A DNA stretch of 64,000 nucleotides from Okamejei kenojei. Lineage: Eukaryota. This document shows, one piece after another, positions 6,060 to 64,000 of the stretch. Below the pieces are notes generated by a model. It was given only the letters and a program-made list of their open reading frames with translations. It did no database searches and was not told where the DNA came from. Location: assembly GCA_035221665.1 (NCBI GenBank), contig CM069144.1, forward strand, positions 29,078,001-29,142,000, read 5' to 3'. The position numbers were made by a program, and so were the translations under genes. How positions within the stretch are numbered: the first letter of the stretch is position 1; every line of letters begins with the position of its first letter.

Positions 6060-6077
6060 TTAGGGTTAGGGCAATTT

Positions 6078-15851: not shown

Positions 15852-16031
15852 TGCCCCTGTCCCACTTAGGAAACCTGAACAGGAACCTCTGGAGACTGCG
15901 CCCCACCCAAGGTTTCCGTGCGGTTCCCAGAGGTTTTTGTCAGTCTCCCTAAAGTGGTTTCCGTTTTAAAAAGTCATAATTTTTAAGTATCCAGAGGTTT
16001 CCGTTCAGGTTTCCTAAGTGTGACAGGGGCA
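15852..16031. mobile_element. PIF/Harbinger-type MITE, 180 bp
   Basis: ~43-bp TIRs tgcccctgtcccacttaggaaacctgaac / gttcaggtttcctaagtgtgacaggggca; TTA on both flanks. Confidence 0.85.
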
Positions 16032-16689
16032 TTAGTTTTACTGTGCTCTCAATAATTATCCAATATACATTTCCTCCCAGCATAAACCTTGTGATTACAC
16101 ACTATTTCCGTATGAAAGAGGTTTTGTAAGAGTTTAGTGAAGTGCTGCATGGTCATATTGTGCAATTTATTTTGAAATGGAACTGTTCAATGCTAATTTC
16201 ATGTAAATTACTCATTCTTTTTGTCATTCTCATAGTGTGATTCGTCTCGGTCTATACACTTACCCGATCAAGCCAATTTGAAGTTTGTAGCATTGATTAA
16301 ATGCAATACCTCTTGATATAGTTTTTAATGCAAATTCTTACTCTGACCATTCGTTAGTATCAAACAAGATTAATAGCTAAGGTGTACTCAGACCAAGGCA
16401 ATACAGAGGGATACAGAAGAAGCAAATCAATTGCATTTGATTAACCATTTTGATTAAAATGTTGTTCCCAATGTATGACTAGATTATTTTTTATTTGGTT
16501 TATGGTTATGTAGTACAAAGTGTGCCAGCCACCTACAAATAAAATAGGTCCCAGATTTTCATTTTTCCTATCATTCCTTATTTCATAGAAGGCACCAATG
16601 CGACCCATTGATCCGTGCTGGCTCTTGAAGAAATGTCCTTCTCCCACCCTTTAAAATCCTAATTATTTCAGCAACTGCCTACAATAGAG

Positions 16690-23269: not shown

Positions 23270-23434
23270 CGTACACAAAAGGCTGGAGAAACTCAGCGGG
23301 TGCAGCAGCATCTAAGGAGCGAAGGAGATAGGCGACATTTCGGGTCGAGGCCCTTCTTCAGACTGGTCAGGGATCAGGGAAACGAGAGATATAGATCTCT
23401 CGTTTATTTCTCTATATCTCTCGTTTCCCTGATC
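23270..23434 (-). mobile_element. Penelope-type terminal fragment with hammerhead-like core and perfect hairpin
   Basis: Minus strand reads ctgaagaagggcctcgacccgaaatgtcgcc; 24-bp perfect inverted arms at 23372-23395 / 23411-23434. Confidence 0.7.
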
Positions 23435-23899
23435 TTACATCAGACTCCATTGAGGCACAGTAAATATATCCAAAGGGACTAGATTTATTTAAGGCAAAGT
23501 ATTATTTATATATATATATATATTGGATCTTTAGATCCTTAGATACCCCATGACACAAGTCTAAGGGATGTCTAAGTCTAAATCTAAACTAAGTCTGCAG
23601 CAGACCCCATGAGTCTGCTATAAATGAAAATAGACATTGATATTATGACCCACCCAATAAGGTTATAATCAAAACTTGTAAAGCAGGTACACTGCATGAC
23701 TTGGGTCATCCATTAGGATCACAATACAAACATATAGGGATACCCTAAACACAGTGAAATACAAGCCTACCATTATAGACCATAAGTATAATGTAGTCTA
23801 ATAATTGGCTTTTAGAGTTTTCCTGGTCCCCTTCCAAGCGTTGAAATCAACCTCTGGACTGCTTGATCATGGATTTGAACTCAAAGTAGGTTTTGTATC

Positions 23900-27214: not shown

Positions 27215-27777
27215 AGGGCCTGTCCCACAGGTGATTTTTTTAGGCGACTGTCATTGTCGTAGTAGGTCGCCGAAAAACCGGCGACTGTACCCGCTCTAGG
27301 ACAAGCTACAACAACCTACCACTTAGTCGATGTTAAGCTAAGGCAAGCTACCGACAACCGGCGACGCATTAGGACGTCCACCTACGACCACAGGTGACAA
27401 CCTACGACAACCGGTCAACCTATGTCCACCCGCGACAAGCTACGACCCTGTCGGCGACAACTGAAGACAATTCAGTCGCCGGTTGACGTAGGTTGACCTG
27501 GGTAGTCGCCAATGGAATTCACCGAAGTCAGCACCGGCGACAACCTACGTCATCCTGGCGAGAACCTACGACAGCACCGATGTCAGAAGTCAAGCTGCGC
27601 TCATTGGCGTCAAGCCCACTGTCGTCGACAATTTTTGAACATTTCAATATCCAGCGGCGACCAGAAAAACGCGACAACTCTTTGGGCGACAGACTACTCA
27701 CGACCATACAGCCGTCACCCCAGCGACCATGTGGTGACAGCCTAGTCGCCTGTAGTCACCTAAGTGAGACAGGCCCA
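27215..27777. mobile_element. PIF/Harbinger-type non-autonomous element
   Basis: TIRs agggcctgtcccac / gtgagacaggccca with TAA/TTA flanks; internal degenerate ctacgacaac repeats; CpG-rich. Confidence 0.75.
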
Positions 27778-34850: not shown

Positions 34851-35202
34851 AAATATAAGCCAGTATACTCCTCCATCTTAGCATTCATAAGAGATGTGCA
34901 CCTTGGTCCCTCTAATAATGATCAACATTTTAAACTTGTCACAATTTAAAATAATACTGTTTTTTTTCATATTATGTACTATCTTGTCACTTTCTGGCCC
35001 ATTCTCTTAGCTTAACAATATCCACATGAGGCATCTTTACATCCTCCTCTGCACTTACAATTTCACCAAGTGTTTTACCATCAGCAAACTTAGCAAGGTG
35101 ACATTTAATTTATTGAATAATTGGAACATTAGCATTGATCCATGCAGTGTTTCATTGGTCACAGCCTGACAATGATATCTCATCTTTACCCTACTTGAAG
35201 GT

Positions 35203-35304
35203 AGACAAAAAGATCCTTCTCGACCCGAAATGTCGCCTATTCGCTCCATTGATGCTGCCTCACCCGCTGAGTTTCTCCAGCATTTTTGTCTACTTTTGAT
35301 TTTT
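35203..35304 (+). mobile_element. Short Penelope-type element with 14-bp TSD
   Basis: ccctacttgaaggt duplicated at 35189-35202 and 35305-35318; interior ctcgacccgaaatgtcgcc...gagtttctccagc. Confidence 0.75.
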
Positions 35305-35439
35305 CCCTACTTGAAGGTTGCTTTTGGGTTGCAAGGCCAGTCAAATATCCTGGTGGGCAAGATTTGATCTACAAATAGTTGAAAAATATTCTGAGTTATG
35401 TTGACTTCATATCACATAGATTACACAGATAACAGTCTA

Positions 35440-36904: not shown

Positions 36905-37640
36905 GCTGGCCTCTAACTGGAATTGACCTTGAGGGCTCTGGTCGCAGAGCCTGTTGTCTTACCATCACGGAGCTGGCTGACTTCGGAGACTGTGGTGGCG
37001 TCGTGGCTGCGACTCGACTTTGGAGGCTTCGGCCGCGGGCCCTGTGGACTGCAACATCGGGAGCTCGCAGGTCCCTGGTCGGTGACCGGCTTTCGGGAGC
37101 TCTAGCAACAGCAGCATCTGCACTGAATCGTGGGGCTTGAATCGGCCCATTCGCGGGGTCTTTAATCGCTCGGCGGGGGCTTTAACATCGAGAGCCTCAA
37201 TCATCTCGATGTAGCAGTTTGACTGCCTGACCGCGGGCGAAGAAGCAGGGAAGAAATAAGACTTTTGTTTAAGAAGGAACTGCAGATGCTGGAAAATCAA
37301 AGGTAGACAACAGTGCTGGAGAAACTCAGCGGGTGCAGCAGCATCTATGGAGCGATGGAAATAAAGAAGGGTTTCAGCCCGAAACGTTGCCTATTTCCTT
37401 TGCTCCATAGATGCTGCTGCACCTGCTGAGTTTCTCCAGCACTTTTGTCTACCCAAGAGATAAGACTTTTTGCCTTCCATCACATTGAGGAGGTGTCTGG
37501 AGGAGATTCTCTGTGATGGATATTTGTGTTAAATTGTGTTAATTGTGTGTTTTTTTGTTATTTTTACTGACATGACTGCATGGTACGAACTTTTTTGGAT
37601 GACAATAAAGGAAATTCAATTCAATTCACTCAATTCAATC
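36905..37640 (+). mobile_element. Non-LTR element 3' region with (TTCAA)n tail, interrupted by a fold-back element
   Basis: CpG-rich body ending aataaaggaaattcaattcaattc. Confidence 0.5.
37267..37454. mobile_element. Penelope-type fold-back element with 16-bp TSD
   Basis: Flanks aagaaataagactttt (37251-37266) / aagagataagactttt (37455-37470); inverted arms; partial core aagaagggtttcagcccgaaacgtt. Confidence 0.8.
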
Positions 37641-40442: not shown

Positions 40443-42710
40443 GGGGGCTACGGACACCGAGTATAGCTGTAGGGGGGTCACTTCATGAACACGAAGGGAT
40501 GATTCGCCTAACACATGGGATAAATTCTTTCGCATTATTGAGGGCATTTTATGGGTAAAGGCATATTGCTCCTCAATGAAGGATTTACACATTCAACTCC
40601 AGATTGATAACACCACAGCAGTGGCATATATTAATCATATGGGAGGAGTACGGTCATTATCATGTGTTAACTGGGTACCGTCATGTGGCATTGGTGTATG
40701 TCAAGGCATATCTGCGTTTCAGCCATTTATTCACCACCTATAGCTAATGTGGTGGCCGACCATAGGTCGAGTATGTTTCATGCCAATATAGAGTGGATGT
40801 TCAATTCTAAACTTTGTCACACAGTTGTCACTCGATTTGGGTTGCCAGCCATTGATCTGTTCCATCCAGATTACATCACCAGTTGCCTAAATATGTTTCA
40901 TGGGAGCCAGATCCAGGTGAAGTTGCCGTGGATGCAGTCTCGTTACATTGGGGGCACTAAAATCTTATGCAATTTCTCCACTTTTTTCATCCTGAACTGT
41001 CTCACCACAATTGAGCGAGTCTCCGCCACAGGTGTTTTGGTGGTTCGCAGATTACCCAACACAACCATGGTTCCCCTTCGTGTTTTCAATGATGGTTCAG
41101 TCATTCATGATAATTCCCAGCTGCAGTAATTCTTGGTGCAGCCGGTTACAGGAGAAAGTCACCCTTTACATGACCGTATTAATTGTTGGTCTGCAGGTTC
41201 TGACCAGACAATTCCAAGGTCTTGGATTGTTGAACAGGGCCATGGCGGTTCTCACTGCAGCTTGGCGAAATAGCACTCAAAACACACTATATGGTTCGCA
41301 TAAAGAAATGGGAACTGTTTCTATGAACAATCCAATATGTCATATCAATATGCAAGCATATGTGATGTGTTGGAGTTCCTTGCTAAGTTGCATTTTGATG
41401 AGCACCTGCGTTATAGTGACATTACCAGCGCTCGGAGTGTGTTGTCCTCTTATTGGATGTAGTCTTCAGAACAACATCCTATAGGGTCTCATCCGTTAGT
41501 ATCCCGATTTATGAGGAATTTTAATAAAAATCCTCCGAAACCTCGCTATACAGAAATCTGGGACATCACTCCTGTTCTCACAATGCTTCGGCAATGGGCT
41601 CCAATTATTTCATTATTTATGCAGAGATTAACTCTTGCTGTGGTTATGCTAATAGCGCTGGTTTCAGCACAACGTGTACAAACATTACAATTCTTACAAA
41701 TACCATGCATGCATTTGTCTGGAAATGACATTACCTTCTATGTTTATGATTTAATCAAACAAAGCAGGCCCGGTCTGGCTGGAATCAAGGTGACGTTTAA
41801 AGCCTATCTTGTTGACCAAATGTTATATGTAGTTACGCCATATAACTTAAGCCAATATATTAAGGTAACAAGGAGTCTCAGACGTTCTGAGACAGGACTG
41901 ATCATTAGTCACAAAAAGACATATACAAGAGTGTCAGCACAAACTATTTCTACATGCTTGAAACAGGTTTTCAATTATGCTGGAGTCGACATTTCTGTCT
42001 TTAACTTTCACTCCACCAGGGCGGCATCAATCTCCACGGCGAAGGCTCAGGACGTGCCGCTAGACTAAATCTTCGAGGCCGCAGGATGGTCTCGAGAAGC
42101 AACATTTTCTCAATTTTCTAACAAACCTGTACAGACCGTGCCACGGTTTGGGCATGCTGTTTTGGGTCACATTTAATTCATTTGCTTTATTTTCTATCAT
42201 TGTTTGTAATTTTCCCTGAGACAGAGGGGTTATTCCTGCTTTAGTATTATTAACAATAGTTATTGAATAATTCGAAGCAATGTTCAATATATTATTTATT
42301 CCCTACTGTGTCAACCGAAGCAGATTGTCGTATGGTGTGCATCGACGGCATGAAAATACAGAGCTTTGAAATCTTCACGTAGTCACTCACGTGACTCCGA
42401 AGTAAAATAGTAAGATTAAACGAGAACTTACCAGTTCGAAGTTTGATCCTTATTTTATGAGGAATGACGTTGAGGGATTACGTGCCCTCCGCTCCCACCC
42501 TCATAATCTAAGAGATCATCTGGTAGTTCTAGTCTTCTACGAGCCTTACTATGTTATTTTGGCTATTTGTTTTCTGTGTTTTCACGCCGCTGCTTTGAAG
42601 TATGACGCGCATGCGCCTGGCGGGTCTTCTTCACGTAATCCTTCAACGTCACTCCTCATAAAATAAGGATCAAACTTCGAACTGGTAAGTTCTCATTTAA
42701 TCTTACTATT
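37871..42710 (+). mobile_element. DIRS1-type tyrosine-recombinase retrotransposon, full-length but with decayed ORFs
   Basis: RT (RRYLKFNW...YKALTLGLSSAPRLFIKLLKPV), RNase H (LQTDVS..GWG; IDNTTAVAYINHMGG), methyltransferase-like region (PAIDLF; YPTQPWF), YR (VSAQRV...HSTRAAS...AAGWS); ITRs 37899-37932 / 42604-42637; ICR 42372-42484. Confidence 0.93.
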
Positions 42711-46830: not shown

Positions 46831-48537
46831 AGTAAAGAATGTCACTACATAGCTGATAACATTATGTTTCATTTGACCATTTAATATCACTGTTGAAAGA
46901 TTTATTAAAAAACATTTAATTTTTTAAATATCTTTATTTATTAGAGATACCGTAAGTTACGTCAGTGTACATCCCTTATATAGTATTACAATCATTGTAC
47001 CCCTTAATTTTTTTTAAGGTCAGGGGAAGAGAGAAAATAAGATAAATAACAGCAAAGAAAGAGAAGAGTGAAAAAGAGATGTGAAAGTGAAAAAGCATGA
47101 GGGAAAGGAAACCCTTGAAGAGTTAGGGACCAGAGATTAAGAGATAGACCCTGGAGTGGAAATAAAAGAAAAAGGGAAAGAAAGAGAAGGAAAGAAGAAA
47201 AGCCAGTTACCTTATTATTAACATCTCGCAAAAGGAGTCTACCAACAAATTTATTTCATCATATCAGTTCTTATTTACTGTTTGTGTAGGAAATGATGAT
47301 CCAAAATAAAAACTAATCCATTTAGCCCTTGGTTTTAAGATAGTGTAGTTATTTGGATTATTCCTAATCAGAAAGGATAGCATTATACATTGTGGCATTA
47401 GGGATACCACCAGATCAGCAATAACTATACTGGCAATCGTAGGAAGATTAACTTACATGATAGGCTTTTTTTTCCAATGTCAAACAATAGTATTTATAAG
47501 GTCCAGGCCCATTCGAGGGTGCATTCCCTCATTGTCAGCGAGGAGATACAGGTAACTTGGATTAATCCCAACAGCTTCCCCTGACCTTAAGAGGAAGTGC
47601 CGGCAGTCTCAGGTTTGTCTGGATGGTTTTGTTCTGAGCCAGGAAAAACGGAAGCACGGTTAACAGTGGATTTTCCACTCTCTCTTTTTACTGACCTCCT
47701 TTTCCCTCTGGCTGGAGCTTGTAGGTTTATAAGGAGCAGGACAGACAAGGTGCACGTGATTTGATCTGATAGCCACAAACTGGAACATGCTGTGGTTCGT
47801 TTGCCCGTGTCCTCAGTTTACTCCAGGTTGCTGGTGCTTTCCAGTAGCCAAGCATTGTTTGCGGTGCTTATCGTAGGCTTCCTCTGGCCCGTCCACGAGT
47901 GATGGGGTTTGGAGGGGGCCCTAAGGGAGGACGTGTCATCACAACATGTATTGGAAAAATCACACAAAGTCATTCAACATAATACTTTTCCTGAATAAAT
48001 CACTGATGCAGTTCAGTTTCTGTATCTTTGTGATCACTTGATGATATGCTGGACTCACCAACTCCAATTGTGCCCATTCATATTGCAGGTAGGTGCTGAT
48101 GAACAGTGACTGCAGTATCTATTAAAACTATTCAATAAATATGCAGTAATTGTTGAATACAGCTTCTCTTTAGCAAGCAATATCACGTTTAATGTGCATG
48201 AATTCCTGAATGTCACAGATCACTAAAAGATTAATATATCCCCTGATAAGGGAGGTAATACTTCAGAGAAGAGACCCACATGATAACATATCCAAGCAAG
48301 TAAATTCTTATTGATATTGTGACATTCTACAGAAACCTCTTTTCCATGTTAAACATTGCACTAAGTGATATGTTTATTTCTCCATGAAGTTGTCATCTGA
48401 GAAACTCGACTGTTTACAAGGCTTCATGAGGATTTTTTGAAATTCATCAATGTGTTTGGAGATGCCACCCTTCAGCTTTATGCAGTTTTCAGAACTTATG
48501 CAGTTCTAGTTGTTGGGATCTTGCAGGTGATCCAACC

Positions 48538-49988
48538 TGTAAATGAAAACTTTACAAGCTCTTAAGTGTACAACATCTTTTAATGATAGCACTGGGTATT
48601 ACATACACCTTCAAGCACCGGCTACATTTTTCTACTGAGGGGAAGGCGTTATGATTGATGTTAACTGGGCGGGGTTAATGGGAGTGAGGTAACTATATTA
48701 TTGGTTGCATATAAACCATCTACATCCTTCCCCTTAGAAATCAAAAAAACAGATTGTTGTCACGACAACCGAATTAAACAGCAGAATTAAACGAAATCGC
48801 CGTAGCGAACAGGCGGCTTACTGATCCTGCCCGAGCGCGTACGGATGTCTCCCCCTCCCCCCGAAAGAGCAGAAGAAGCAGGAGGACGCAAGGCAGCCGG
48901 GGAACCAGGGAATGGCATTGGGGTGGGAGAAACAGGAGAGGGAGAACCGCGATCGGCAACAGGGGACCCGCGCAGAGGGGAACCAGGCGCCCGCGACGGG
49001 GACCGAGGCATGCAGGGAACACCAGCCGGGGCGGCAGCCGGCTGCTGATAGGAGAGTGGCCCAGGGGGCTGCGGCTGTGGCTCATTAACCGCAAGCAGGT
49101 GTTGTCGGCTTCTTCGGTAGATGGAACCCTCACAGTCGACCAGATACGAACGAGGTGAGTCGGCCACCCCAACCACGGTGGCCAGACGGTAGTGCCCACT
49201 GGCGGTCTGCAAACGAACAACCTGTCCGGGCAACAGAGGATCGAGTGGTCTGCACGACCGATCGTGGGAACGCCGCTGGCTGTCATGTTTCTCTTGAATT
49301 CGCCGCTGCACGGAGGCGGGCTCCAGCACCCGAGGTTTCAGCTGGCGCTGGGCAATCGGGACGGTGGATCTGGTAGTTCTGGACATCAGACGCTGAGCAG
49401 GGGACCCCATGGCCGGATCCCTGGAAACATTCCTGAGGTTCAGGAGATCCAAATACAAATCAGAATTGGATAGTCGCGCCTGTTCCATCAGAAGCTTGTA
49501 TGAAGGTGTATGTAATTACAGTTCGGGCATCTTTTTCATGGCATCAGGTCCGACAAGGTTGAGGAGGAGGGAAGCTTTAAGGGAGTCAGGATCAGCGCGG
49601 TGTGCGACGTTGACAAAGTGTGTGAAATCAAATTCAAACGTGGCCCAGCGCTCAGAGATGTCAGCATCAAAGACAAGCTGCTCGGGCTTTCTGCAAGAGG
49701 ACGCCATGGCCAAAGAGATCAAAGCACAAAAAACACAAATCAAAAAAAAGAAATAAAAACCGATAAACAGGAGACGCAAGTATCTTCCAGCTTCGACACC
49801 ATGTAAATGAAAACTTTACAAGCTCTTAAGTGTACAACATCTTTTAATGATAGCACTGGGTATTACATACACCTTCAAGCACCGGCTACATTTTTCTACT
49901 GAGGGGAAGGCGTTATGATTGATGTTAACTGGGCGGGGTTAATGGGAGTGAGGTAACTATATTATTGGTTGCATATAAACCATCTACA
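48538..49988 (-). mobile_element. Internally deleted Gypsy (Mag-like) LTR retrotransposon with identical 187-bp LTRs
   Basis: LTRs 48538-48724 and 49802-49988 (TG...CA, identical by eye); TSD CAACC; PBS tggtgtcgaag; PPT gggaagga; gag start (MASSCRKPEQL...ERW) next to the integrase C-terminus (SPAQRLMSR...PRSYLV...TRSGRISKPP). Confidence 0.93.
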
Positions 49989-51714
49989 CAACCCAATGAA
50001 AGATCAGTTGTCATTGGAATATAATGGAAATTTTAATCTAGTAATTAGCTGGAAACAGTAACAATTCATTTTCTGGATGAGATAGGATGAGTAGAATTCC
50101 TGGATTTGGATTCCATCATTGTACTATCCAGCCATGCTAGCTCAGGGTAACGCTACCTGTATTGCTGTTGTTGAAGGCTATCCAATTACTTCAAGAGTGG
50201 AACATTTTGCTGAGACATTGTGCTGCATGAATAGTAAGATTAAACGAGAACTTATCAGTTTGAAGTTTGATCTTTATTTTATGAGGAGTCGAGTTGAGGG
50301 ACTACGTGAATAGAAGCCCGTACAGCCGTTGGTGCGTCAATCTTCAAAGCAGCGGAATGAATTCACAGCTAACAATGACTGAAGTATAATGGTAAGATGA
50401 TAAAACTAGAACTACCAGATGAGATCTATGAGGGTGGGAGCGGAGGGTATTTGCAAGTTGGTATCTACCGTAAACAGCAACTGTGGCCCGATTTCCGAGC
50501 CATTCTTGCAAGACAATCTTGGTCCTTCTACTGAACCTGCCCAATTCTAACCTGCTTGGAAAGCTAGTATTGTCCATTTTACATGGTTAGACCCCTCAAA
50601 GTAGCTGATATTGTCTCAATCATTTGTAATGTATAACTAAGTGTACACCTTACCAAGCTGTAAGTGGTCCCTTAATTGCAGAGTAGCACAGGTACAGTGC
50701 GTGGAACCTCTGGCCAGCTTTCATGCTGCCACCAACTTCAGTGAACCGCTGCCGAAGAAGACGTGGGGTGCATTGTCGCCGAAACAATAAAACCTTGCTC
50801 GTTCCAATAGCTAGTGCTCCGTCCTCCAGGTTTCACCTATGGAAACATCTTACCTGAATAGAAGATTCGGCAGCCAACTGTAATGTCCCCCTGAGGGTGG
50901 TGTTCACTGCATATGTGTTTGGGATGGCAACTTTTCTGCCAGGCATAGACCTCTAACACATGCCCTACATCCCTTGGGCATGCTCTACGGCTATACCCTC
51001 AGACTCGGCGTCAACCAATCCCGCATGCTCTCCTCTTACATGAGGGAGCCATTAAGCAGCACGGTTACAAGGTGCTGCTGGCGCAGCTTCAGCAATACGC
51101 CGATTTTGCCATGGCCCCAGCGTCAGACTATTTCCCATTTAGGGCCATTAGCACCATTTTGCAATATAATTAAAGATTTACTTAACAACTACTGGAGCAC
51201 TAATGAATACTGTGTGTCCATCATTGTGACTTTATTAACTTCAGCTGGAGAAACAAGGTGTGTTAACAATGCCCTATATGGCACTTAATAGTTAACCATT
51301 TAACAAGATAACAGTTGTCCTACTTGCACAGCTGAATCGCATCTATACTATTAACAATTAATCTAATGACTAGAAAAGCTGTTTTATAACAACAAAACTG
51401 TTACCAGAGTCTATTGACTGCAATCTGTTGCCCAGGCCGGTGTCACGGCCAATTGAATACCTAAAAGTGAATCCCAATGTCCTACAAGTCTATTTAATAG
51501 AAACTTAATCTAACTGGATAGAGGAGCCCAATTTCTCAAATATAGTTTGAGACTTAACAGCGGATTTTAGCACATACATAACCAGTGTTTTTGAACTGTG
51601 AATAGTTCTCTTTGAGTGCTTTTTTGTCATCATTCTGTTATATTGCCTTATCATAGCAATGCCTCCTCATCCCCCATGATCACTGTAAATGGGAATATCC
51701 TACTAAACAGCTAT

Positions 51715-52165
51715 TCCCATAAAGCAGCCCTGAACAAGGTACCACTGGCGCCCATGAAGCAGCCCTGAACAAAGGTGCTACTTGCGCGGCCTTTCCCATA
51801 GGCCAGTATTTGCCATAGATTTGGCGTTCTCATGAAGCAGCCCTGAGCAAAGGTGCTGCTGGCATAACCTCTCCAATAGGCTAGCCTGCCATAACTTGGC
51901 ATTCCCCTGGAGCAGTCCTGAGCAAAGGTTCTGGCACCGCCTCAGCAATAGGCGTGCCTGCCATAGCTTGGCATCCCCATTAGCAGCCCTGAGCAAAAGT
52001 GCTGCTGGCACAGCCTCTCCAATAGGCAAGCCTGTCATAGCTTGGCACCCCCATGAGCAGTCCTGAGCATAGGTACTGCTGGCACAACCTTTCCCATAGG
52101 CTGGCACTGCCATAACTTGGCATCCCCATGAAGCAGCCCTACCCAAAGGTGCTGTTGGCATAAAC
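51715..52165. repeat. Minisatellite, ~65-bp unit, about 7 copies, inside the second DIRS element
   Basis: Repeated ataggc...tgccataacttggcatccccatgaagcagccctgagcaaaggtgctgctggca. Confidence 0.85.
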
Positions 52166-52394
52166 TTTACTGTTGACACGGCTCTCACATTAAGCCACAC
52201 TGACCCAATTCCTGCTGAAGGATTGTCTCTAACTTCATTCCCAGAGAGGAAACCTCCCAACATCTTTCCTAATTGTACTGACTATTTTTTGTCAGTTGTC
52301 CCCATATCCTAGGGATTATTATGGTTTGGGAACCCCATAGGTGAATTTCCCCTCCCCAGGAATCAATATCAATATATATATATATACATATGTG

Positions 52395-52660
52395 AGTTTA
52401 ACCCCATTTCCTGCGAACTACTGCGTTCTGGGAACCGCATATACTTGGGTTTCCCCTCCACCGGAACCCAGCCTAACCGTTTAGGTTAGTTTTAACCCCA
52501 TGTCCTAGGGACTACTGCGGTCTAGAACCACATATACTTGGGTTTCCCCTCCACTGGGAACCCAGGCTGACCGTTCAGGTCAGTTTAGCCCCATACCCTA
52601 GGGACTACTGCGGTCTGGAACCACACTATTCTCGGGTATCCCCTCCCCGGGAACCCAACG
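52395..52660. repeat. Tandem repeat, ~92-bp unit, about 3 copies, inside the second DIRS element
   Basis: Repeated aaccccat...actactgcggtctggaaccacatatacttgggtttcccctcc...ggaaccca. Confidence 0.85.
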
Positions 52661-54072
52661 TGTGGAATCACTGACCGCGTTATCAGTGTCTCCGATCACG
52701 AACCCGACATTCCCAGCTCTCTGCTTCCGTGGTTGGACCAGGGTTTTCCACAAAAACCCTAGGCTGGTTCCCTCGTCGGCCATCACGAACATCCCGCAAA
52801 AACCTCGGAGGTTCCTACAGGAGACCTGCAACAGGTAAGGAATAGCACTTACCTGAGGTTTTAGACTTACCGTTGGTGGAGCTGCGCAGCTCCACAGTCG
52901 TCTGCACGAAAATGTCTGACGCAATGAGAAGCATGAACGGCTGTATGGGTTCTTCACGTAGTCACTCACGTGACTCCGAAGTAAAATGACAACCTTTTAC
53001 CAGAACAAGGAGTGGTAATTTATGTTGACATTACAGGAAGATGATATTGCATGATGATTTACATTGTTAAGTGTGTATCTCATGTTAAAAATGTGTTAGC
53101 TTGGGTCTTGTTCAAAAGTGCAGAATCTAATTTCACAATTGATATGAAGGGATCCAAAAAGAGTTACTGAAAAACCAACGCTGTTCAATCTAAAATCTGG
53201 GCATGTTAGATCGACGTGGCTCCCTTTTTCATTCCAGTTTATATTATTGACCATCTCCTCAGTTCAAGGCACATATTCCTTTATATCTAGTTTGATTCGG
53301 CTACATAAATGAAAGCTTGCATTCAACCAAGTCTGTTCATTTTTAAGCTGACGATGTGCACCATAGTGTCTGCTTAGGTTTGCTGGATGGCAATATAATC
53401 ATTTTCACTTTTACAAATCTCAGTTAATAACATATCTTTATGTTATTTCTCAACAAGAAAATAGAAGAGGAGTGCATGCTTACTTTCAGTGACTGATGTA
53501 CAAAGATACCGAAGTCTTGTTGCACCTCCCCTTTTCATGGTTCCACTTCTCTCCCCCATCCCACACCCAACTTCACCAACCACACACCTCATCTGGAATC
53601 ATCAACAGAATGCCAGCACACCCACACTTACCAGGGCTGGATGCAGAGGGCTGATCTCAAAGTGACCTGGTCTATCAAGAGTTCTGATCTACAACTGAAC
53701 ATGACAACAAACTGTAGAGGCCTCATCCTCAGACTATCCCTGTCATTTAACAGGAAATATGCAAAGTGTGATTATCTTATTAATAATTAGTAAGAAATGG
53801 AATCAGCAGTAAAAATTGTGCCACACACAAACAATTAAGCAAATTGGTCCTCGGTCACCACCATTTTATAAGGCTTAAGAAGTGCAAACAATCCAAAAGA
53901 GTCACAGTGGACTGAAAACAGATTTTCAGTTTATGTTTAACTTAAAATCATGGATTAACTGACCCTCAGCCTTGCTGATGACTAGAAGTCTTGGAAGTAA
54001 ATAACATAAAGTATGGGACAGGAAGGGTGCTTACTTGATTTGCCCCAATAGTCTGCTTTACTGAGTATGAGT

Positions 54073-54294
54073 GTTTAAGAAGGAACTGCAGATACAGGAA
54101 AATCGAAGGTACACAAAAATGCTGGAGAAACTCAGCGGGTGCAGCAGCATCTATGGAGCGAAAGAAATAGGCAACGTTTCGTGCCGAAACCCTTCTTCAG
54201 ACTGAAGAAGGGTTTCGGCCCGAAACGTTGTATATTTCCTTTGTTTCATAAATGCTGCTGCACCTGCTGAGTTTCTCCAGCATTTTTGTGTACC
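54073..54294. mobile_element. Penelope-type fold-back element with 15-bp TSD and hammerhead-like cores on both strands
   Basis: ttactgagtatgagt at 54058-54072 and 54295-54309; ~90-bp inverted arms centred on cttcttcag-a-ctgaagaag. Confidence 0.88.
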
Positions 54295-54799
54295 TTACTG
54301 AGTATGAGTATCAGCAAGTATGTTGTAATGCAACAAATGGAAAATGTTGTGCAACGGCAACAGAAAACAATCCTAATATTTATTTTATCAACACTTTGTA
54401 CACTTATGTTAACTGAATCGCATCTGCCCTGGTGGCAGACCTCTTGGCAGATGCCAGCTTCTGCACCTGGCTCCTCATGAGTCTGAGCATGTCGATCATC
54501 ATCATTGTTGCGCCTTACAATGCTATGTAGGCCAGTGGGCGCAACTTCTACTGAAGTGTAGATGACCGTTGGCTCGCTAGGAGCTCATCCACCCTTTGAC
54601 AGGTTTTGACAATGAACCTCATGAGTTGCTTGATGAGCCACATGAATCTCTGCATCACATTCTACTGATGCATGGTCTTTCAGAAGTTCCATATAAAGAG
54701 CACTGAGTTGGTGACTAATGCACTTTCCTTTCTCTATGTCATTAAAACTAAAATCATATTTGAAATCAATCTGCTGCACATTTTCTGTCGTTTAGTTGA

Positions 54800-55110
54800 G
54801 ATTAGTTTGGTTTAGTTTAGTTTAGCGTGGAAACAGGCTCTTCGGCCCACCGAGTCCACAGTGACCAATGATCATCCATATCATCCATACACTCGTTCTA
54901 CCATGCAAACTAGGAACAATTTACCGAAGCAATTAACCTACAAACCTGCACACCTTTGGAATGTGGGAGGAAGCTGGAGCAGCTGGAGAAAACATACACG
55001 GTCACGGGGAGAACGTACAAACTCTGCACAGACTGCACTCGCAGTCAGGATCGAATCTGGGTCTCTGGCGCTGTAAGGCAGCAACTCTACTTCTGCGCCA
55101 CCATGCCACC
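54800..55110 (-). mobile_element. tRNA-derived SINE, near full length
   Basis: (GTTTA)n tail and reverse-complement core and head of the family at 1775. Confidence 0.8.
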
Positions 55111-55879
55111 CCTACCCTTGGATTCTTTAAGGTCTCCTCAGTGCAGAGAAAAGATAGACACCACTTGTCAATTATACAGAATAATCTTTCTCATAACATG
55201 ATGTGAAACCTGTTGAGCAACCCCAGCATCCTCTACTCATGTCACAACAAGCCATTTCTGAGGGTGGGGAATACTGGAGGTACTCAGCAGATCATGTGGT
55301 ACCTATGGCGATGAGGAATGGATGGTGCATGCTGGGGAAGGTTCCACGATGTGGGTAATTTCTCTCCATACAGATACAGTACCTCCCAGTCTGTTAAACA
55401 CTTCCAGTATTTTCAGTTTTTGTTTCAGAATTCTAGCATCTTCAATGTTTTGCTTGTCAGTACCCAGCCATTTCTGAGGTTTCTTTCTCCACTGACTCCA
55501 CTTTCTCCATTGCTTCATCTGCCAGGCTTTCCTACCATTCTTCTTTACTTCTGATTTCCAGTAATTGTGTTCTGTATTTCACAATTTCAGGAGTGTTTAC
55601 TTGTTTTGTTTTTCTGTACTCCCTCTCCTTGTACAATCTCCAGACACGTCAGCTGCCATTAACAAGTTCTCACCAAGCTCTCTCAGCTATCATCAATCTG
55701 TGCTATATATTTTCTTATGGTCTACATCCTATCAGAGACATTTTATTTGCTACCCTTACACCCTTTCAGTTTTGCAGGTTCTTTATAAAGGAAATAATGA
55801 ATGGAATTGACTTCCAGGCAAATAATTAATTGTCATACTTTGGATAAGTCATAGGTCAGTATTAATGCTGCTTCAGGCC

Positions 55880-56742
55880 CCAACTAATTGTGTGCATTTC
55901 TAGCTGCTGTATTTGGGAAGGAAATTATTGAACTGGAAAGAGGACTGAGGAGATTTGTCAGGAGTTTGGGATGAAGCTTACAATTATGAGATAGACTGAA
56001 GAGGCTGGTTTGTTTACCTTGGAGTGGAGAGAAGCTGAAGGGTGACCTAATACAAAATAATGATCATTGATAGGGTGGAGAATGGGAATCTTTTCCCCAC
56101 AATAGATGTCAAAGGCCAGAGGGCTTAGGTAGATTGTGGTAGAAGGATGATATTCAGGCTGGAAGTCTGTAACCAGTGGAGTTTCGTAGGAATATGTGCG
56201 GGACCTCTACTGTTTGAGATATATATAAATGTCTTGGAAGTAAACAAAAATGGGTTCGTTAGTAAGTTTGAAGATAACACCAAGAATGCTGGGGTTGTAA
56301 ACTGTGAGGACGGCTGTGAAAATATACAATGGGACATAGTTCCGCTTCCAAAATGAGCAGATAAATGGCTGATGGAGTTTAATCCGAGCAGGCAGGTATT
56401 CCACTTTGGGAGTTAAAATGTAAGGAGAAAATATCCAATTAATGGCATGACACTCCCAGCTTTGATGTACAGAGGGAACTTGGGGTCCAAATCCATAACT
56501 CCCTGAAAGTGGCAACATAAGCTGACTCGGACCAATCCTCTTACTGCACTCCAAATGTGCTGCTATTACATCTTTAATAATTGTCTCCAGCATCTTCCCC
56601 ACCACCGAGGTCAGGCTAACTGGTCTATAATTCCCTGCTTTCTCTCTCCCTCCTTTCTTAAAAAGTGGGATAACATTAGCTGCGCTCCAATCCACAGGAT
56701 CTGAACCAGTATCTGTAAAATATTGGAAAATGATCACCATCA
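55880..56742. mobile_element. Mosaic of CR1 fragments in both orientations
   Basis: + strand GPLLFEIYIN...SKFEDNTK; - strand DWSAANVIPLFKKGGREKAGNYRPVSLTSVVGKMLE. Confidence 0.8.
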
Positions 56743-57469
56743 TATATGTGTGAACTCTCAGGACCAGACGTCAACTTTCAGATCCAAACTTGAATACTTC
56801 CAGTTACACACTTTATAATATAAATAATACTTAAAAGATCCTCACTATAATAAGAAAATAAATAATTAACATGACTGTGACAAGCCTTGCAAAAGAACAA
56901 AAAATAAAATCAAAAAAAGCTTTTATCACAGGTTGCTGCAACTTTCTAGTTGCCACAAGGTCAATATATTCTCAATAAATATTGCAAAACCAGACACCAT
57001 GGAAGCTGCAATGTAAATATTTAATAATCGACTGAAACCATGATTCACTTTGCCCCATATGTTGATTAAAGTTTTAGAATTTTCTTTCACAAAGTGATTT
57101 TTTATTTAGTTTCTGACAATGGTGGAAGGTGAATCAAGTTTTTTAGTAATGTAATAAGTTTCCAGTTCAAATTAGCATAATTTTAGAAGTAAGATATAGG
57201 AATGACCTAATTTTGTAATTGCTTGAAGAGGCAGACAAGGATTTTTTTTCTATTCAGTTAATCATTTTAATATAAACTATAATTTCTGATGGATAAACCT
57301 TTTAGCTGCCATTGGTAGGAGATTCATGAATATTTTTTTAAAAAGTGCTTTTAAAAATTCATTACAAATTCTATTATTGTAGCACTTATCAAAAGACACC
57401 AGGTTCGCACTTATAAATTATGTGTTCCATGGACATTCCTGAGAATCCCACTTAGGGATAAGATAGAGA

Positions 57470-58130
57470 AGAAGAAAGCAGGAGCTGCAGATGTTGGAAT
57501 TGTGAGCCAAACACAAAGTGCGGGAGAACTCAATGGGTTAGGCAGCATCTATGAAAGGAACAGATAGGCAACATTTCGGGTCAGGACCGTTCTTCAGACT
57601 GATAGTAGTAGTGGAGAAAGCTGGACAAAAGTCCAGGGCGGGACATAGACAGGCAAGTGATAGATGGGGTTTTGACCCAAAACATCACCCATTCCTTCTA
57701 CCCAGAGATGCTTCCTGTCCCGGTGAGTTACTCAAGCTTTTTGTGTCTATCAACTGATAGATGAATACAGGTGAAGGGGATATTTGAGTGGTAGATGAAT
57801 GGACAAAGGCTAGAGACGAAAAAGAGAAAAAAAAGGGTATCAGATCAGGAGTGAATATGAGTGAAATGTAAAGACAGAGGGAGGGATATATGTGGGAGGA
57901 GATGGAGGGCTAAGAAGGGTGGGATAATGGGAGAAACAAGTGTGCTCAGGGTGGGGGTGGGAGAAGGAGGGTGTTGTTTAAAATTGGAGAATTCAATGTT
58001 CATACGGTTGGGTTGTAAGCTACCCATGTGGAATATGAGGTGCTGCTCTTTTAGTTTGTGTGTGCCCTCACTCTGACAACGGAGGAGGGCCAGGTCAGAA
58101 AGGTCATTATGGGGATGGGAAGGGGTGTCC
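57470..58130 (-). mobile_element. Penelope-like element 3' fragment (GIY-YIG endonuclease C-terminus + terminal repeat)
   Basis: LKEQHLIFHMGSLQPNRMNIEFSNF followed by a terminal region with ctgaagaacggtcctgacccgaaatgttgcc and an inverted partial copy. Confidence 0.75.
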
Positions 58131-58829
58131 CCACCATTTACAAATGAGAAAGCCAAGAAATGTGAGTACAGAGAAGAGGAACACGAGATGGCAACAAAAA
58201 TAAGTGAGGAAGAAACCAACAAGAAGAGAGTGCGAAAAATCAAATTATTATATCTGACAGAATTTTTTTTAAATAGAAATAATTAAATAAATAATTTACC
58301 AGAAATATTTAGATTAAATGAGGAAGATAAAGATGAAAATCAACAAACAAAACAGAAAAATAGCAACGTTTAGCTACATGATAGGTAACAAAACAGTACA
58401 GTGATAGAACCAATCCCCACAAAATAATATTAGAAATACCTTTATGTGGTATATTTAAAGAACATTGTCCCATCACAATTCATAACATCAGAGCACAGAA
58501 ATTATATAACTTTTTTATTTAATGGTGGAGTCATGATGCTTATTTTACAAGATATGTATTTTACAAGATGAAGAAACTGTGAAAACTCTGATATTGTAAA
58601 AATGTGATTTTGGTTTGCACATCCAAATCTAAAGTTAAAATTCAGTGAATACCTCAATTAAGTAACTAATGAAACAGGTAAATATGGAAACCTGTAACTT
58701 TGAGAAAAGCTGGTAAAATTAAACAAATAAAAACCTCTCAGTGCCATGAAAATAATTTATACTACAAGATGGATGGAATACTGCAAACCAACTGATGCAA
58801 AATAACTTTTCTGATTTCTTGGACAATGC

Positions 58830-59080
58830 TGTTATTGTGACCTTGCTACCTTCAAGAGGAGGTCAAATACTTTTTGGGCTTCTCTGAGTTTGGACTCTGT
58901 TCCCATTTCTGTAATCCTTCTGCATCAAACAAAGATTAGTTAATTTAATTAGATGTGGGGTGAGTTTAGATAGATCCTCTGGTGAAATATAATCCAAACA
59001 AGTCAACATGGGCCTTATCTCTCATTCTGCACACATAGCAATTTTTAGGCACTATAAAAGGTGGGGAGGGAGCACAAACG
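58830..59080 (+). promoter_or_regulatory. Transferrin promoter with TATA box
   Basis: TATAAAA at 59053-59059, about 105 bp upstream of the ATG. Upstream motifs: GATA (cttatct, ~59014), HNF1-like gttaat (58939), forkhead-like aaacaaa (58927) and nuclear-receptor half-sites (tgacct 58838, aggtca 58860). Confidence 0.6.
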
Positions 59081-59159
59081 TTCTGTCTCAAACTGCTCAC
59101 AGCAGGTTTGTGAAAAAGTCACACAACTCCTCTATTCCGTCCATCTAAAGTGTGGCAAG

Positions 59160-59199
59160 ATGAATTTGCTCTTCACTGTTGTAGTCTCTGGACTTATTT
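59160..59199 (+). CDS. TF: Transferrin exon 1 (signal peptide)
   Basis: gcaagATG encodes MNLLFTVVVSGLI plus 1 nt, then donor |gtgagt; the phase-1 junction joins exon 2 in frame. Confidence 0.8.
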
Positions 59200-59585
59200 G
59201 TGAGTATTAAACATTGGTTTTGAAGGAATTAATCTGAAAGTATTATTCAATTATATCGTTCTTTGTTGGACATGTTTTAAAAAAAAAATCATCTTTTTAA
59301 ACAAACTTTTGTTTCAAGTAGCATAGAATCAAAAATGTGTAGGATTTTCTTTTTGATTATAGAAGATTTATTGAAAATGTTGTGGGAATTTTAGAAATAG
59401 CATTAACTATAAATTGACAAATCAAAAGTGTATCAGAAAGATGAATGATGGAAAAAATACAATAATTAAATCATGGCCTTTTTTCTATAGGTGTAAAATA
59501 GGCTTTAATTCCCTTATATAACTTTGACTGATCGTGTTAATCTTAATGCAGTGACATAATCAGAAACTGATATTTATTCAGTGCC

Positions 59586-59812
59586 GTGTTAAAGAAGGAA
59601 TTGCAGATGCTGGAGAATCGAGAGTACACAAAAGGCTGGAGAAACTCAGCGGGTGCAGCAGCATCTAAGGAGCAAAGAAGATAGGCGACGTTTCGGGTCA
59701 AGACTCTTCTTTAGACGGTCTGAAGAAGGGTCTCGACCCGAAACGTCGCCTATCTCCTTCGCTCCTTAGATGCTGCTGCACCCGCTGAGTTTCTCCAGCC
59801 TTTTGTGTACCC
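59586..59812. mobile_element. Penelope-type fold-back element with 13-bp TSD in transferrin intron 1
   Basis: tttattcagtgcc at 59573-59585 and 59813-59825; long inverted arms. Confidence 0.88.
59717..59750 (+). ncRNA. Candidate minimal type I hammerhead ribozyme
   Basis: ggt-CTGAAGA-a-gggt(ctcg)accc-GAAA-cg-TC-gcc. The core is complete, stem II has 4-5 bp, stem III is the palindromic ACGT (dimer type) and stem I has only 3 bp. Activity is untested. Confidence 0.5.
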
Positions 59813-61036
59813 TTTATTCAGTGCCAATATCTTCTCATTCTCAGCAAAAAATGTTGAATACACCCAAGACACATTGATGGACAAAATTGATATTATTTCA
59901 TAATAATTGTAAAACTGCCTTTTTGTTGCAGTTGCTGTCACAGGAGACTTTCAGCTGCCACAATTTGCTGTGTTTCATTGCTACTTGACATTTGCCATCT
60001 CATAGTGAGGACCTATGACCTAAGAATAAAAATAAGTAATCCCTCATTTGCACTGCAGCAAATAAGAAGTAATCTTGTGTGAATCAGAAGTTGGTTAGAT
60101 AACAGATCTTGCCATAAATAATGTATAGGATGGAACTGCAGATGCTGGTTTAAACCAAAGCTATAAATAATAGTGTGGCCAAGTAGAACAGATATATTTC
60201 ATGGAAAATTAGGAGGTGTGTGAGGAAACACTGGATAGTAGGTTATGAGGAGACATGGGAAGATTGGAGGAAGATCCTATGAATCATAAACACCAACTGA
60301 ATTGAATTAATTATTTTGTGCCATGAATTATAAGTAATTCTCAGCTAACACCAGTTTCTGCATATTTTCTGAAAAAAGAATGGAATACAAACCAATATAT
60401 TAAAATTATTTATTTTTCGGAAAATAGTTTTGGCCTTTTATCAGGTCTCAACTTCTGAAGGAGTTTATTTAATTTGTTACAAGACTCCGAGCCACCGATT
60501 GTTGCATAGCAACCAAGTGAATTTACATTATAACTTAATATTTATAGTCCATTTACAGAAGCTGTAAAAATATCCTATCTGAGCCACTACTAAAGGGATA
60601 CTGGACTCTGGATAAATACCAAGAGCTTTCAGTTGACATGATGATGCAGAGCTGGTACAGGAACTACATTTCCAAATCAGACTGATCTAAAATTGATATT
60701 GAAAACACATCATTTTTGCAAAATACCAACAAGATTGGCTCGGTAGATGAACAGTTACTGCTGAATATGATATTCTTTTTCATATAGCTAAATAAAACTT
60801 TCCAACACAAATTAATGTCTTAACATGTGAAGAACTGGGTTAGTCTTATATTACCATAGTGGCCTCAGGCAGGCTTAGTTCCTAGAAAAGCTAATGTCGT
60901 CTAACATGTTGCAGGCTGAAATAACAGCATAACCCCCCCCCCCCCCCCCCCCCCCCCCCATAATATTTCCAATCCAAGGATCGATAGACTTTTATGTATA
61001 ATTGATGTATGACCAACCTTCATTTCTTCTCTTTAG

Positions 61037-61194
61037 CACTTTCATTTGCTGCTGAAGTTCCTATCAAGTGGTGTGTCATTAGTAGTGCGGAATTGGCAAA
61101 ATGCAACAGATTGAAAAAAGCAATGGAAACAGAAGGTTTCTCATTTGAATGTGTAAAGAAGAAAGATGTTAAAGAGTGTATGACAGCCATCAAG
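61037..61194 (+). CDS. TF: Transferrin exon 2 (start of N-lobe)
   Basis: ctctttag|CA...AAG|gtggga; encodes LSFAAEVPIKWCVISSAELAKCNRLKKAMETEGFSFECVKKKDVKECMTAIK, the transferrin WC...KC...CV...C..AI pattern. Confidence 0.88.
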
Positions 61195-61454
61195 GTGGGA
61201 ACTTTTTTCATTCTGTTTTGATCCAATTATTTCATAACTGAGTTGTCAAGCTGTACTAGACAACAAACTAGACATGTCTAAGTAAATAGATGTATTAATA
61301 GTAATCATTAGGCTTTCAACATGTAACTTGACAAATTTTGTTATGGAGGTCCTGCTTTCTAATTTGACTAGATAAACTCATGGCAGCCATACTTTAGGTA
61401 GTAGCAGAAAACAACGAATCACCTCACACTAACACAGTTGGCACATAAAGATTG

Positions 61455-61832
61455 TGTAGGAACAAACTGCAGATGCTGGTTTAAATTGAAGGTAGACACA
61501 AAATGCTGGAGTAACTCAGCGGGTCAGGCAGCATCTCTGGAGAGAAGGAATGGGTGACGTTTTGGGTTGAGACCCTTCTTCAGACTGATGTCAGGGGAGG
61601 GGGCAAGACAAAGATAGAATTTAGTCGGAGACAGTAAGACTAGTGGGAGAACTGGGCAGGGGGAGGGGAATGAGAGAGAAAGCAAGGGCTATCTGAAGGT
61701 AGAGAAGTCAATGTTCATACCGCTGGGGTGTAAACTACCCAAGCAAAATATGAGGTACTGTTCCTCCAATTTGCACTGGGCCTCACTATGACAATGGAGG
61801 AGGTCTAGGACAGAAAGGTCAGATTGGGAATG
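61455..61832 (-). mobile_element. Penelope-like element 3' fragment
   Basis: KLEEQYLIFCLGSLHPSGMNIDFS on the minus strand, followed by ctgaagaagggtctcaacccaaaacgtcaccc and terminal repeat. Confidence 0.78.
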
Positions 61833-61869
<37 letters not shown>

Positions 61870-62452: not shown

Positions 62453-62893
62453 AAAGAATGAAAGGTCATAGTGGGGGTGCAAAAATATTTGCTGAAATGC
62501 TTCAATGGTTGTTGATTTTTATCTGCAAGTTTAGACTAGTGAAGTGGATTGTTCTCCTTTGAGCAAAGGAGGTTGGGGAAGATTTAAAGAAAAATGTGAT
62601 CATGATTGGTTCAGATGGATTTTAGGAAGCTATTCCCAATAGCAGATGGTATAAAGGTCAGGGAACATAGATTTTTAATTTTGAGCAACAAAAACAAGAG
62701 TAATATGAGGAGAAACCTTTTTTCTGCAAGAAGTAGTTGTGAATTGAAAATTATTTAAGACTGGTGGAAACAGAATCTTCCAAAAGGGTATTGGATAACC
62801 ACATTGCAGGGTGGATAATTTGCATGTTTATGGAGAAGGAAGAAACTGCTATACTACAAGTAGCACAGACTCAATGGACCAATAGTCTCTTGA

Positions 62894-63655
62894 TGGGCCT
62901 GTCCCACTTAGGCGACTTTTTAGGCAAGTGCAGGAGATTCTGCAGGTGAGTGCAGGAGACTGACCACATGGTCGCCACATGTTCGCTGATGGTCTCTGGT
63001 GAGTCTCCTTCATGGTCGCGAGGAGTTCCTGCATTCTGGGAACTAATCACGGCCTCAGTATGGTCACCGCAAATTTTTCAACATGTTGAAACATTTTCTG
63101 CAACCAAAAAATTGGTCGCCATGGAGAAAATTGATAATCCTATAGACATAGGGGCAGTTGTAGCGGGGTTGCCATGTAGTTATGGGTAGTCAAAGTAGTC
63201 GTAGGTAGTTTTAGTTAATCGCCTTTGCTGACCAATCATTTTCATTGGCTCATTGCGGAAAAAAAACGTAAGCAGGAGTTTTCAGAACCAAGGATAACCG
63301 ACCGGCAATGTTAAATGTCCGCCGAACTTCACAGCTGTGTATCTCTGGCTTATTAAAAGTTGTCTGGCTTCTTAAAAGTTTTCTCTACCCCCCTCTCCCC
63401 TCTTTTAAAGGACTTACCGTACACTGTGCTAGCCGTCTTAATTACAGCGCCCATCTTCCTGTTCATCATATTGTGTGTACACCTTGGCTTTGTACCATGT
63501 GAATTTCAGGCAGCGCTCCCCTGCTTGCCCTGGCCCCCGTCTTTGTGATGTGTTTGTGTGTGTGTGTGTGTGTTCCACTCTCACAGTCCCCGTTCCAGTT
63601 CCCGGTTTTTCAGGCGGGTTTTTCCGCTGAAAAATCGCCGAAGTGGGACAGGCAT
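62894..63655. mobile_element. PIF/Harbinger-type non-autonomous element in transferrin intron 2
   Basis: TIRs gcctgtcccacttaggcgactttt / aaaatcgccgaagtgggacaggc, the same TIR family as at 15852 and 27215. Confidence 0.78.
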
Positions 63656-63810
63656 AGCAATTCTATGATTCTTCATTGAGACGTTACCTTGATGGTTTCA
63701 GAAGAAGAGGATATAATTGGAATGAAAATTTGATGCCTTCAGTATATTCCAAAATTGAAAAGAAGGCACCTGCATTCTTATTAAAAAAAATACGTGCTTC
63801 TTATTTGCAG

Positions 63811-63913
63811 AATAATGCGGCGGATGCTATAACAGTGGATGGTGGAGATATTTATGAGGGAGGTCTCTTGACTCATGGACGCCTAAAGCCAATTGCAGCT
63901 GAACAAACTACAG
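63811..63913 (+). CDS. TF: Transferrin exon 3 (includes the iron-ligand Asp); gene continues past the window
   Basis: tttgcag|AAT...ACAG|gtaagt; encodes NNAADAITVDGGDIYEGGLLTHGRLKPIAAEQTT, the transferrin ADAxxxDGG signature. Confidence 0.9.
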
Positions 63914-64000
63914 GTAAGTGCCAAACATAAGCACTGGATACAAAATTTATTAACATACGATAAATGGAGAAAAATTACTTGAGGTAAAACTCCAAAAAAT

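Follow-up and report, generated by a model that had tools for sequence, protein, structure and literature searches.

The stretch of skate DNA analysed here (the window) comprises 64,000 nucleotides of Okamejei kenojei (assembly GCA_035221665.1, contig CM069144.1, positions 29,078,001 to 29,142,000 of the forward strand). It contains a family of short hairpins, in each of which two arms derived from the region of a hammerhead ribozyme stand head to head; we interpret them as probable insertion products of a Penelope-like element (PLE). According to BLAST comparisons within the window, 13 loci, amounting to about 2.7 kb or 4.3% of its length, belong to the family, which includes, besides the inverted hairpins, solo arms and two long remnants that reach a protein-coding end. 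Arm ends and junctions are numbered below with the C of the core motif CUGAAGA as position 0.

The organization is illustrated by two copies, E54 and E59. E54 lies between target-site duplications (TSDs) of 15 bp (54058–54072 and 54295–54309) and carries at one end only a 35-nt PLE tail (54073–54107, minus strand), which, at about +93 to +127, corresponds to the sense RNA copy's 3' end. The tail continues into an arm representing the 3' part of the pseudo-long terminal repeat (pLTR; 54108–54200, minus strand), with a minimal type I hammerhead at 54200–54173 that has a mismatch in stem II. The junction falls on a native self-complementary 9-mer, TCAG-N-CTGA (54197–54205), and the inverted tail-less arm (54202–54294, plus strand; 0 to +92) has its hammerhead core, ending in GUU, at 54202–54229. 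E59 is flanked by TSDs of 13 bp (59573–59585 and 59813–59825) and consists of a 36-nt tail (59586–59621, minus strand), a tail-bearing arm reaching about −7 with a decayed core (G5>A; 59622–59719, minus strand) and an inverted arm from −2 (59718–59812, plus strand) with an intact minimal hammerhead at 59720–59747, for which a cut is predicted after the GUC ending at 59747, exactly where the initial annotation had placed it. A repeat finder delimited inverted arms of 95 nt with 91% identity in E54 (54106–54200/54202–54296) and of 102 nt with 92% identity in E59 (59615–59716/59718–59819), the latter pair aligning at E = 7e-39. The earlier description of these copies as near-perfect palindromes therefore holds for the arms, which are 91–92% alike, and not from end to end, since a one-sided tail at the left end, 35 nt long in E54, 36 nt in E59 and 34 nt in the related copy E37, stays unpaired. 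The two opposite-strand cores of the form CTGAAGA-A-stem II-GAAA-CGTH that had been reported for each element are present and read outward from the centre, and the one described as decayed is in both copies the core of the left arm, through the stem II mismatch in E54 and G5>A in E59.

The relatives pointed out earlier at 2090, 12465, 14735, 35203 and 37267 are real, as judged by motif and BLAST matches. E37 (37267–37454; TSD 37251–37266 and 37455–37470) has a tail, an arm to +33 and an inverted arm from +3, and E35 (35203–35304; TSD 35189–35202 and 35305–35318) combines an inverted stub of about 10 nt with an arm from +13 and a partial tail. Three inverted copies are older: E2 (2088–2277), whose ends both lack a tail and whose junction contains a templated duplication of about 20 nt; E12 (12455–12930), which has both cores and a left arm interrupted by about 270 bp of unrelated sequence (12528–12795); and E14 (14727–14934), with a tail arm to +14, an inverted arm from −2 and a weak A-rich TSD of 12 bp. 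E23 (23271–23446) is a tail-less arm of the E59 subfamily that reaches about 40–45 nt into the untranslated region (UTR) and is followed by a short UTR-only inversion. Both cores are retained in only three of the eight inverted copies, E54, E59 and E12. BLAST also detected an arm fragment at the window edge (16–57, minus strand) and further fragments at 55270–55324 and 60122–60154, the last being tail only. A solo tail-less arm of another subfamily (57667–57751, plus strand; +8 to +90) is nested in E57, one of the two long remnants; it measures 85 bp and lies between copies of an 11-of-12-bp duplication (57655–57666 and 57752–57763). Being a younger arm in opposite orientation inside the UTR of an older PLE remnant, it represents a case of PLE-into-PLE nesting.

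The origin of the arm is revealed by the two long remnants. In E61 (61454–61833, minus strand) the last 47 codons of the endonuclease (EN) and the stop codon (61832–61689) are followed by a pyrimidine-rich UTR of 105 nt, the hammerhead at 61583, the arm and the tail. E57 (57475–58129, minus strand), which belongs to an older subfamily, has the same order, with the EN end at 58129–57977, a UTR of about 280 nt and the hammerhead at 57597. The core thus sits 105 nt past the stop codon in the former and about 280 nt past it in the latter, and the EN part inside the window, limited to the last 47–59 aa, is contiguous with the arm. Because the arm is continuous in both remnants with the UTR and the last GIY-YIG codons, it is the end of a Penelope pLTR, bearing a minimal type I hammerhead downstream of a GIY-YIG open reading frame (ORF). 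This linkage of arm and GIY-YIG end within the window (61832–61689 and 58129–57977) supports the connection to Penelope and to target-primed reverse transcription that the initial annotation had drawn.

Protein comparisons agree with this assignment. The 47-aa piece of E61 matched two proteins among 4 candidates, from Rhinoraja longicauda (81%) and Leucoraja erinacea (74%), both of them skate gene models that have absorbed the repeat. The Leucoraja protein continues upstream into a GIY-YIG domain (Pfam E = 0.0013, under the curated cut-off); this domain as query led to a zebra-shark protein with a reverse transcriptase (RT) motif, a Cys linker and GIY-YIG, and the latter in turn to RT-EN proteins of 800–950 aa, with named relatives also in Rhincodon, Chiloscyllium, Hypanus and Mobula. 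Of 12 proteins from sharks and rays that were compared with the remnants of the window, seven match, six of them to both remnants (E 1e-9 to 4e-16), the identity to the RT-EN protein ends of Stegostoma, Rhincodon, Hypanus and Mobula being 47–66% over 47–59 aa. The proteins of the relatives score RVT_1 and GIY-YIG in Pfam. A CX2-5CxxC linker occurs in all 12 relatives examined for it (in one with the last Cys as Phe), its region lying outside the window, and it has been assigned to Neptune and Nematis, not to Penelope/Poseidon (PMC8557442). The read-through end of the zebra-shark protein P0003 best matches, at permissive settings, the hammerhead region past the stop codon (E = 0.002). Pfam assigned no family to the ORF-end remnant alone, and a PDB search with P0002, a gene model carrying PLE sequence, gave no matches; all ESM Atlas matches of the 47-aa remnant stayed below 0.9, and one SegE GIY-YIG cluster at 0.86 is a lead only. 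The idea that arm and tail encode a conserved ORF start was dropped, as the frames differ between subfamilies and no N-terminus of a relative matched the arms. Separately, the skate and ray gene models P0001, P0002, P0158 and P0203 carry PLE RT/EN sequence under host-gene names, which is either an annotation artefact or exonisation.

The core motif fits the consensus of metazoan minimal hammerheads (CUGANGAH, G10.1-C11.1, GAAA, a palindrome and NUH, as given in the supplement of PMC4209133), including the additional base that precedes G10.1, a helix I of 2 bp and the ACGU palindrome. Conservation across 12 related arms is 0.935 at the nine positions of the core, compared with 0.807 for their neighbours (permutation p = 0.011) and 0.86 for the distal arm. 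In stems I and II of the 12 arms, 84.7% of cells are paired, a level reached by 22 of 500 shuffles, and only two two-sided changes occur. None of the 16 matches that Rfam gave at E ≤ 10 is a hammerhead, and the microRNA-like ones, all under the gathering score, reflect the hairpin. A covariance model built from 12 cores of the window recovered no more than the copies it was trained on and two degraded members of the family. The initial annotation had warned that the fold-back hairpin would compete with the ribozyme, and the folding computation bears this out: in whole-hairpin RNA the hammerhead fold is predicted to cost about 35 kcal/mol, with P(stem II) = 0.00, as against 1.6–4.3 kcal/mol in single-arm RNA. 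On this model the ribozymes would be passengers that cannot fold inside the hairpin. As the two cores lie on opposite strands, one transcript contains one ribozyme together with its antisense, and no dimer can form in cis. Cleavage by the ribozyme was rejected as the event that sets the element end, because none of 19 arm 5' ends falls at the predicted cut (+27/+28) and 17 extend beyond it (some positions determined by hand). No special stable structure was detected at the tail and RT-start region (z 0.84, −1.34 and −0.18).

The target duplications of 13–16 bp that had been attributed to four copies were recovered, with 15 exact (54058/54295), 13 exact (59573/59813), 16 with one mismatch (37251/37455) and 14 exact (35189/35305), the last partly overlapping the end sequence of the element itself. 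Of 300 site pairs drawn at random as a control, one had 13 exact matches. Among the ten places tested, one further weak A-rich repeat was seen and five were without any; no TSD was found for E2, E12, E57 and E61, nor for E23. A tail of 34–36 nt marks one end of E54, E59 and E37 and is also present in E14, E12, E57 and E61, while it is partial in E35 and missing from both ends of E2. The 3' ends form two groups about 35 nt apart, one tail-less at about +87 to +93 and one tailed at about +127 to +130 (in young copies), and tail-less ends also occur without a tailed partner, for example in the 85-bp solo arm at 57667–57751.

The junctions, expressed as the end of the left and the start of the right arm, are −7/−2 in E59, +33/+3 in E37, +14/−2 in E14, 0/−4 in E12, +81/+13 in E35, +14/−2 with a templated duplication in E2 and about −45/−34 in E23, and in E54 the junction is centred on the native TCAG-N-CTGA. 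The initial annotation had regarded fold-back points unique to each copy as the refutation of an independently mobile hairpin, and all 8 junctions in the window differ, which counts against such mobility here; of the two options it had offered, stereotyped inverted-end insertion products of Penelope fit well, and an independently mobile hairpin parasite is poorly supported. At the same time the inverted right arm starts within −5 to +3 in 6 of the 8 copies (p from 3e-4 to 3e-3 under crude uniform nulls, corrected for window placement, the underlying search having started from copies with a core). Upstream of the core, each of the three longer copies has a tract of 75–79% pyrimidine and CAG-T. 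This resembles a splice acceptor and provides a lead, compatible with either a scar or a mobile hairpin, that the cDNA might end there through an intron acceptor or an RNA 5' end; in D. virilis a PLE intron ends at helix I (PMC4209133). The tracts with CAG before the hammerhead, in three subfamilies, occupy 61584–61615, 57598–57630 and 23362–23395 (minus strand) and coincide with the preferred junction.

If a hairpin master had been copied, left arms would resemble left arms; instead, the arms group by copy. Over 15 pairs of six copies, 126 sites are alike in both arms of a copy and distinct from the other copy, and 7 are common by side (hand-summed), the figures being 6 and 0 for E54 versus E59 and 2 (symmetric) and 2 for E54 versus E37. 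In a tree built from 17 arms, two short rows having been omitted, the arms of E2 pair with each other (93/88), as do those of E14 (87/77), both arms of E59 group with the non-hairpin E23 (97/89), and E54, E37 and E12 are unresolved. It was also observed that in the young arms of E54, E37, E59, E23 and E35 CpG decay has given 8 TG and 1 CA when read in the sense of the element, on either chromosome strand (p = 0.04, small numbers).

Taken together, these results make it probable that the hairpins are dead-on-arrival, extremely 5'-truncated insertions of an EN-bearing (EN+) PLE, putatively of the Neptune/Nematis type, made anew at each site. Their form, a tailed pLTR end joined to a head-to-head inverted tail-less pLTR end and enclosed by a TSD, is the published PLE structure. 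As to the mechanism, to which we give about two thirds of the confidence placed in this identity, the PLE RT-EN would nick both strands 11–16 nt apart, so that one nick would prime cDNA at the tail end (about +127) and the other at a second start (about +92), with RNA uncut by the ribozyme as the template for both; synthesis of the two cDNAs would tend to end where the hammerhead has its 5' edge, and their ends would anneal by microhomology of 1–9 nt, followed by fill-in. The use of two starts, shown in vitro for Anolis Poseidon, we infer for the skate, as we do the stop point and the end joining.

A different step leading to the same identity is a serious though less likely alternative, namely self-priming, in which the tail-primed cDNA stops near the hammerhead, folds back on TCAG-N-CTGA and copies itself, and endonuclease resolution at about +92 leaves the one-sided tail. 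Such a route has been proposed from the junction palindromes of Adineta PLEs (PMC3846280), and EN-mediated resolution has been proposed for the tail (PMC8557442). It would suit E54, whose junction has the native 9-nt palindrome exactly at its centre, and the observation that both arms of any copy always come from one subfamily. However, the tail-less ends at about +90 that lack a tailed partner (the solo arm at 57667, E23 and both ends of E2) are to be expected if +92 is a priming site in its own right (PMC11167929), and the asymmetric junctions of E37 (+33/+3) and E14 (+14/−2) offer little complementarity for folding back.

It is unlikely that the hairpins are independently mobile, non-coding parasites of Penelope, in which a hairpin master would be transcribed, present its free 3' tail as the RT start and be copied whole by RT-EN. 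We regard as equally improbable the related view that some hairpins perpetuate themselves, E54 and E37 being daughters of one master, as retro-mobilised mimics of miniature inverted-repeat transposable elements (MITEs) distinct from tandem retrozymes. The density of 8 inverted copies in 64 kb, the recurrent start of the inverted arms, the one-sided changes common to E54 and E37 (see below), the position of the tail outside the predicted hairpin and the existence of non-autonomous PLE derivatives in the form of tandem retrozymes (bioRxiv 10.64898/2026.07.22.740005) would all accord with a mobile parasite. Yet every junction is different, the two arms resemble each other within at least five subfamilies, which would call for five homogenised masters, and in E23 the E59 subfamily occurs without a hairpin, as an arm reaching the UTR. 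Moreover, a ribozyme that, as predicted, cannot fold within the hairpin would give such a parasite no advantage, and the Anolis protein needs RNA of the arm region (PMC11167929), which the hairpin would presumably bury. Finally, the hairpins match MITEs, that is, non-autonomous cut-and-paste DNA transposons with long terminal inverted repeats, in their size of about 200 bp, long inverted repeats, lack of coding capacity and many copies, but this identity is refuted by an inverted repeat that stops short of one terminus at the 34–36-nt tail, by TSDs of variable length (11–16 bp) and by solo and longer 5'-truncated forms that reach the GIY-YIG ORF.

Several points weigh against de novo insertion of a truncated PLE as the source of the hairpins. 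In the inverted arm only, E54 and E37 have in common two C>T substitutions within CpG, for which the chance is about 0.0014 in a post hoc calculation that assumes pooled independent decay, and this hints at a common hairpin ancestor of the two. Unique junctions could also come from later deletions at the hairpin tip. The sample is a single 64-kb window with only 8 inverted copies, and hairpin masters are possible elsewhere in the genome; because a motif scan for stray family copies, made in bacterial and archaeal genomes, found none and so supplied no copies from outside the window, the junction statistics are restricted to these 8. An intact ORF is absent from the window, and the subfamilies of E54 and E59 are tied to the EN only through homology to E61 and E57. 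The arm lengths vary by indels of 1–2 nt between subfamilies, so the arm may not code for an ORF start, unlike that of Anolis. TSDs of 11–16 bp are longer than those of 8–10 bp in Adineta (PMC3846280). Lastly, the present copies cannot distinguish twin priming from fold-back.

Other genes and repeats surround the hairpins. A gene of the transferrin family lies on the plus strand (59160–59202, 61039–61194 and 63826–63927; two exons score Pfam Transferrin), with a likely signal-peptide first exon at 59160, which would place E59 in intron 1 and E61 in the next. A WD40-repeat gene has two exons on the minus strand (33602–33075 and 28620–27931) and is presumably WDR53. A long non-LTR retrotransposon with endonuclease and RT domains occupies 6070–8311 (plus strand; frames of 221 aa and 539 aa), and we take the insert in E12 at about 12528–12795 to resemble its 3' end. 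A broken remnant of a long interspersed nuclear element with an RT fragment was found at 2833–4429 (minus strand). A tyrosine-recombinase-like frame at 41463–42068 (plus strand; Pfam E = 0.0014) and tandem repeats of 74 bp and 94 bp at 51050–52660 are possibly DIRS-type remnants, and direct repeats of 207 bp with 96% identity around a 242-aa frame at 48518–49988 form an LTR-retrotransposon-like remnant. Inverted-repeat elements unrelated to the hairpin family are located at 15848–16035, 27385–27508, 62890–63660 and 42406–42710; two of them have common GCCCCTGTCCCACTTAGG-like ends and look like true MITEs.

The origin of the inverted pLTRs and tails of PLEs has been described as unresolved (PMC8557442, PMC11167929). 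Extrapolated to the whole genome, 13 loci in 64 kb point to a very large number of copies, which would constitute a natural data set on nick spacing, RT starts and junction microhomologies, sufficient to decide between twin priming and fold-back and suitable for asking why the cDNA stops at the ribozyme edge. The hairpins would be liable to mis-annotation as MITEs or as microRNA hairpins (the Rfam matches were of the latter sort, all sub-threshold), and E59, in the likely first intron of the transferrin gene, would give rise to double-stranded RNA of about 95 bp. Should some hairpins move independently, they would represent a new type of non-autonomous retroelement.

Among known systems, Adineta Pen2a/Pen2 combine a head-to-head inverted, 5'-truncated pLTR, a one-sided tail of 30–40 bp, a junction palindrome and a TSD (PMC3846280; PMC8557442), and the inverted-pLTR structure of PLEs is summarised in PMC8969392. 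The skate hairpins share the inverted pLTR, the one-sided tail, the junction palindrome and the TSD around the unit. They differ from Adineta in the TSD length (11–16 versus 8–10 bp), in their very high density and in that the ORF is wholly missing, so that only about 220 bp are left and the unit looks like a MITE. Our literature search yielded no description of such ORF-less palindromes in cartilaginous fishes; Repbase and Dfam lay outside that search and may already list them.

For Anolis Poseidon it was demonstrated in vitro that both strands are cut and extended, that two RT starts bound the tail and that uncleaved RNA is the template (PMC11167929). As in the Anolis element PAc, the hammerhead of the skate family is followed, about 90–130 nt downstream, by two 3' end sites that are one tail length apart, and the use of a template uncut by the ribozyme agrees with the 0 of 19 skate arm ends at the cut. 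PAc, a member of the Penelope/Poseidon clade, has an ORF that begins at stem II (PMC11167929), whereas the relatives of the skate family have the CX2-5CxxC linker and the skate arm has frame-breaking indels between subfamilies. Tiny palindromic products are not described in the part of PMC11167929 consulted.

Regarding the ribozyme itself, the skate cores have the same core, extra base, G10.1-C11.1, GAAA-CG-UH palindrome and short helix I as the minimal hammerheads of metazoan PLEs, among which a 2-bp helix I is found in Culex, D. virilis and Oikopleura (PMC4209133); shark or skate terms did not occur in the one supplement file of that paper that was searched. In Schistosoma, opposite-strand pairs of minimal hammerheads stand 100–700 bp apart (PMC4209133), whereas the skate cores abut within 1–10 nt. 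Tandem same-strand cores of the retrozyme type were not seen among the 12 strong matches of the covariance model, which are its training copies. Like the non-LTR retrozymes described in bioRxiv 10.64898/2026.07.22.740005, the skate hairpins are short, non-coding, pLTR-related and hammerhead-bearing, and occur in vertebrates with PLEs; in contrast to those retrozymes, in which tandem units run head to tail and the ribozymes, all on one strand, can dimerise, they are single head-to-head pairs with ribozymes on opposite strands.

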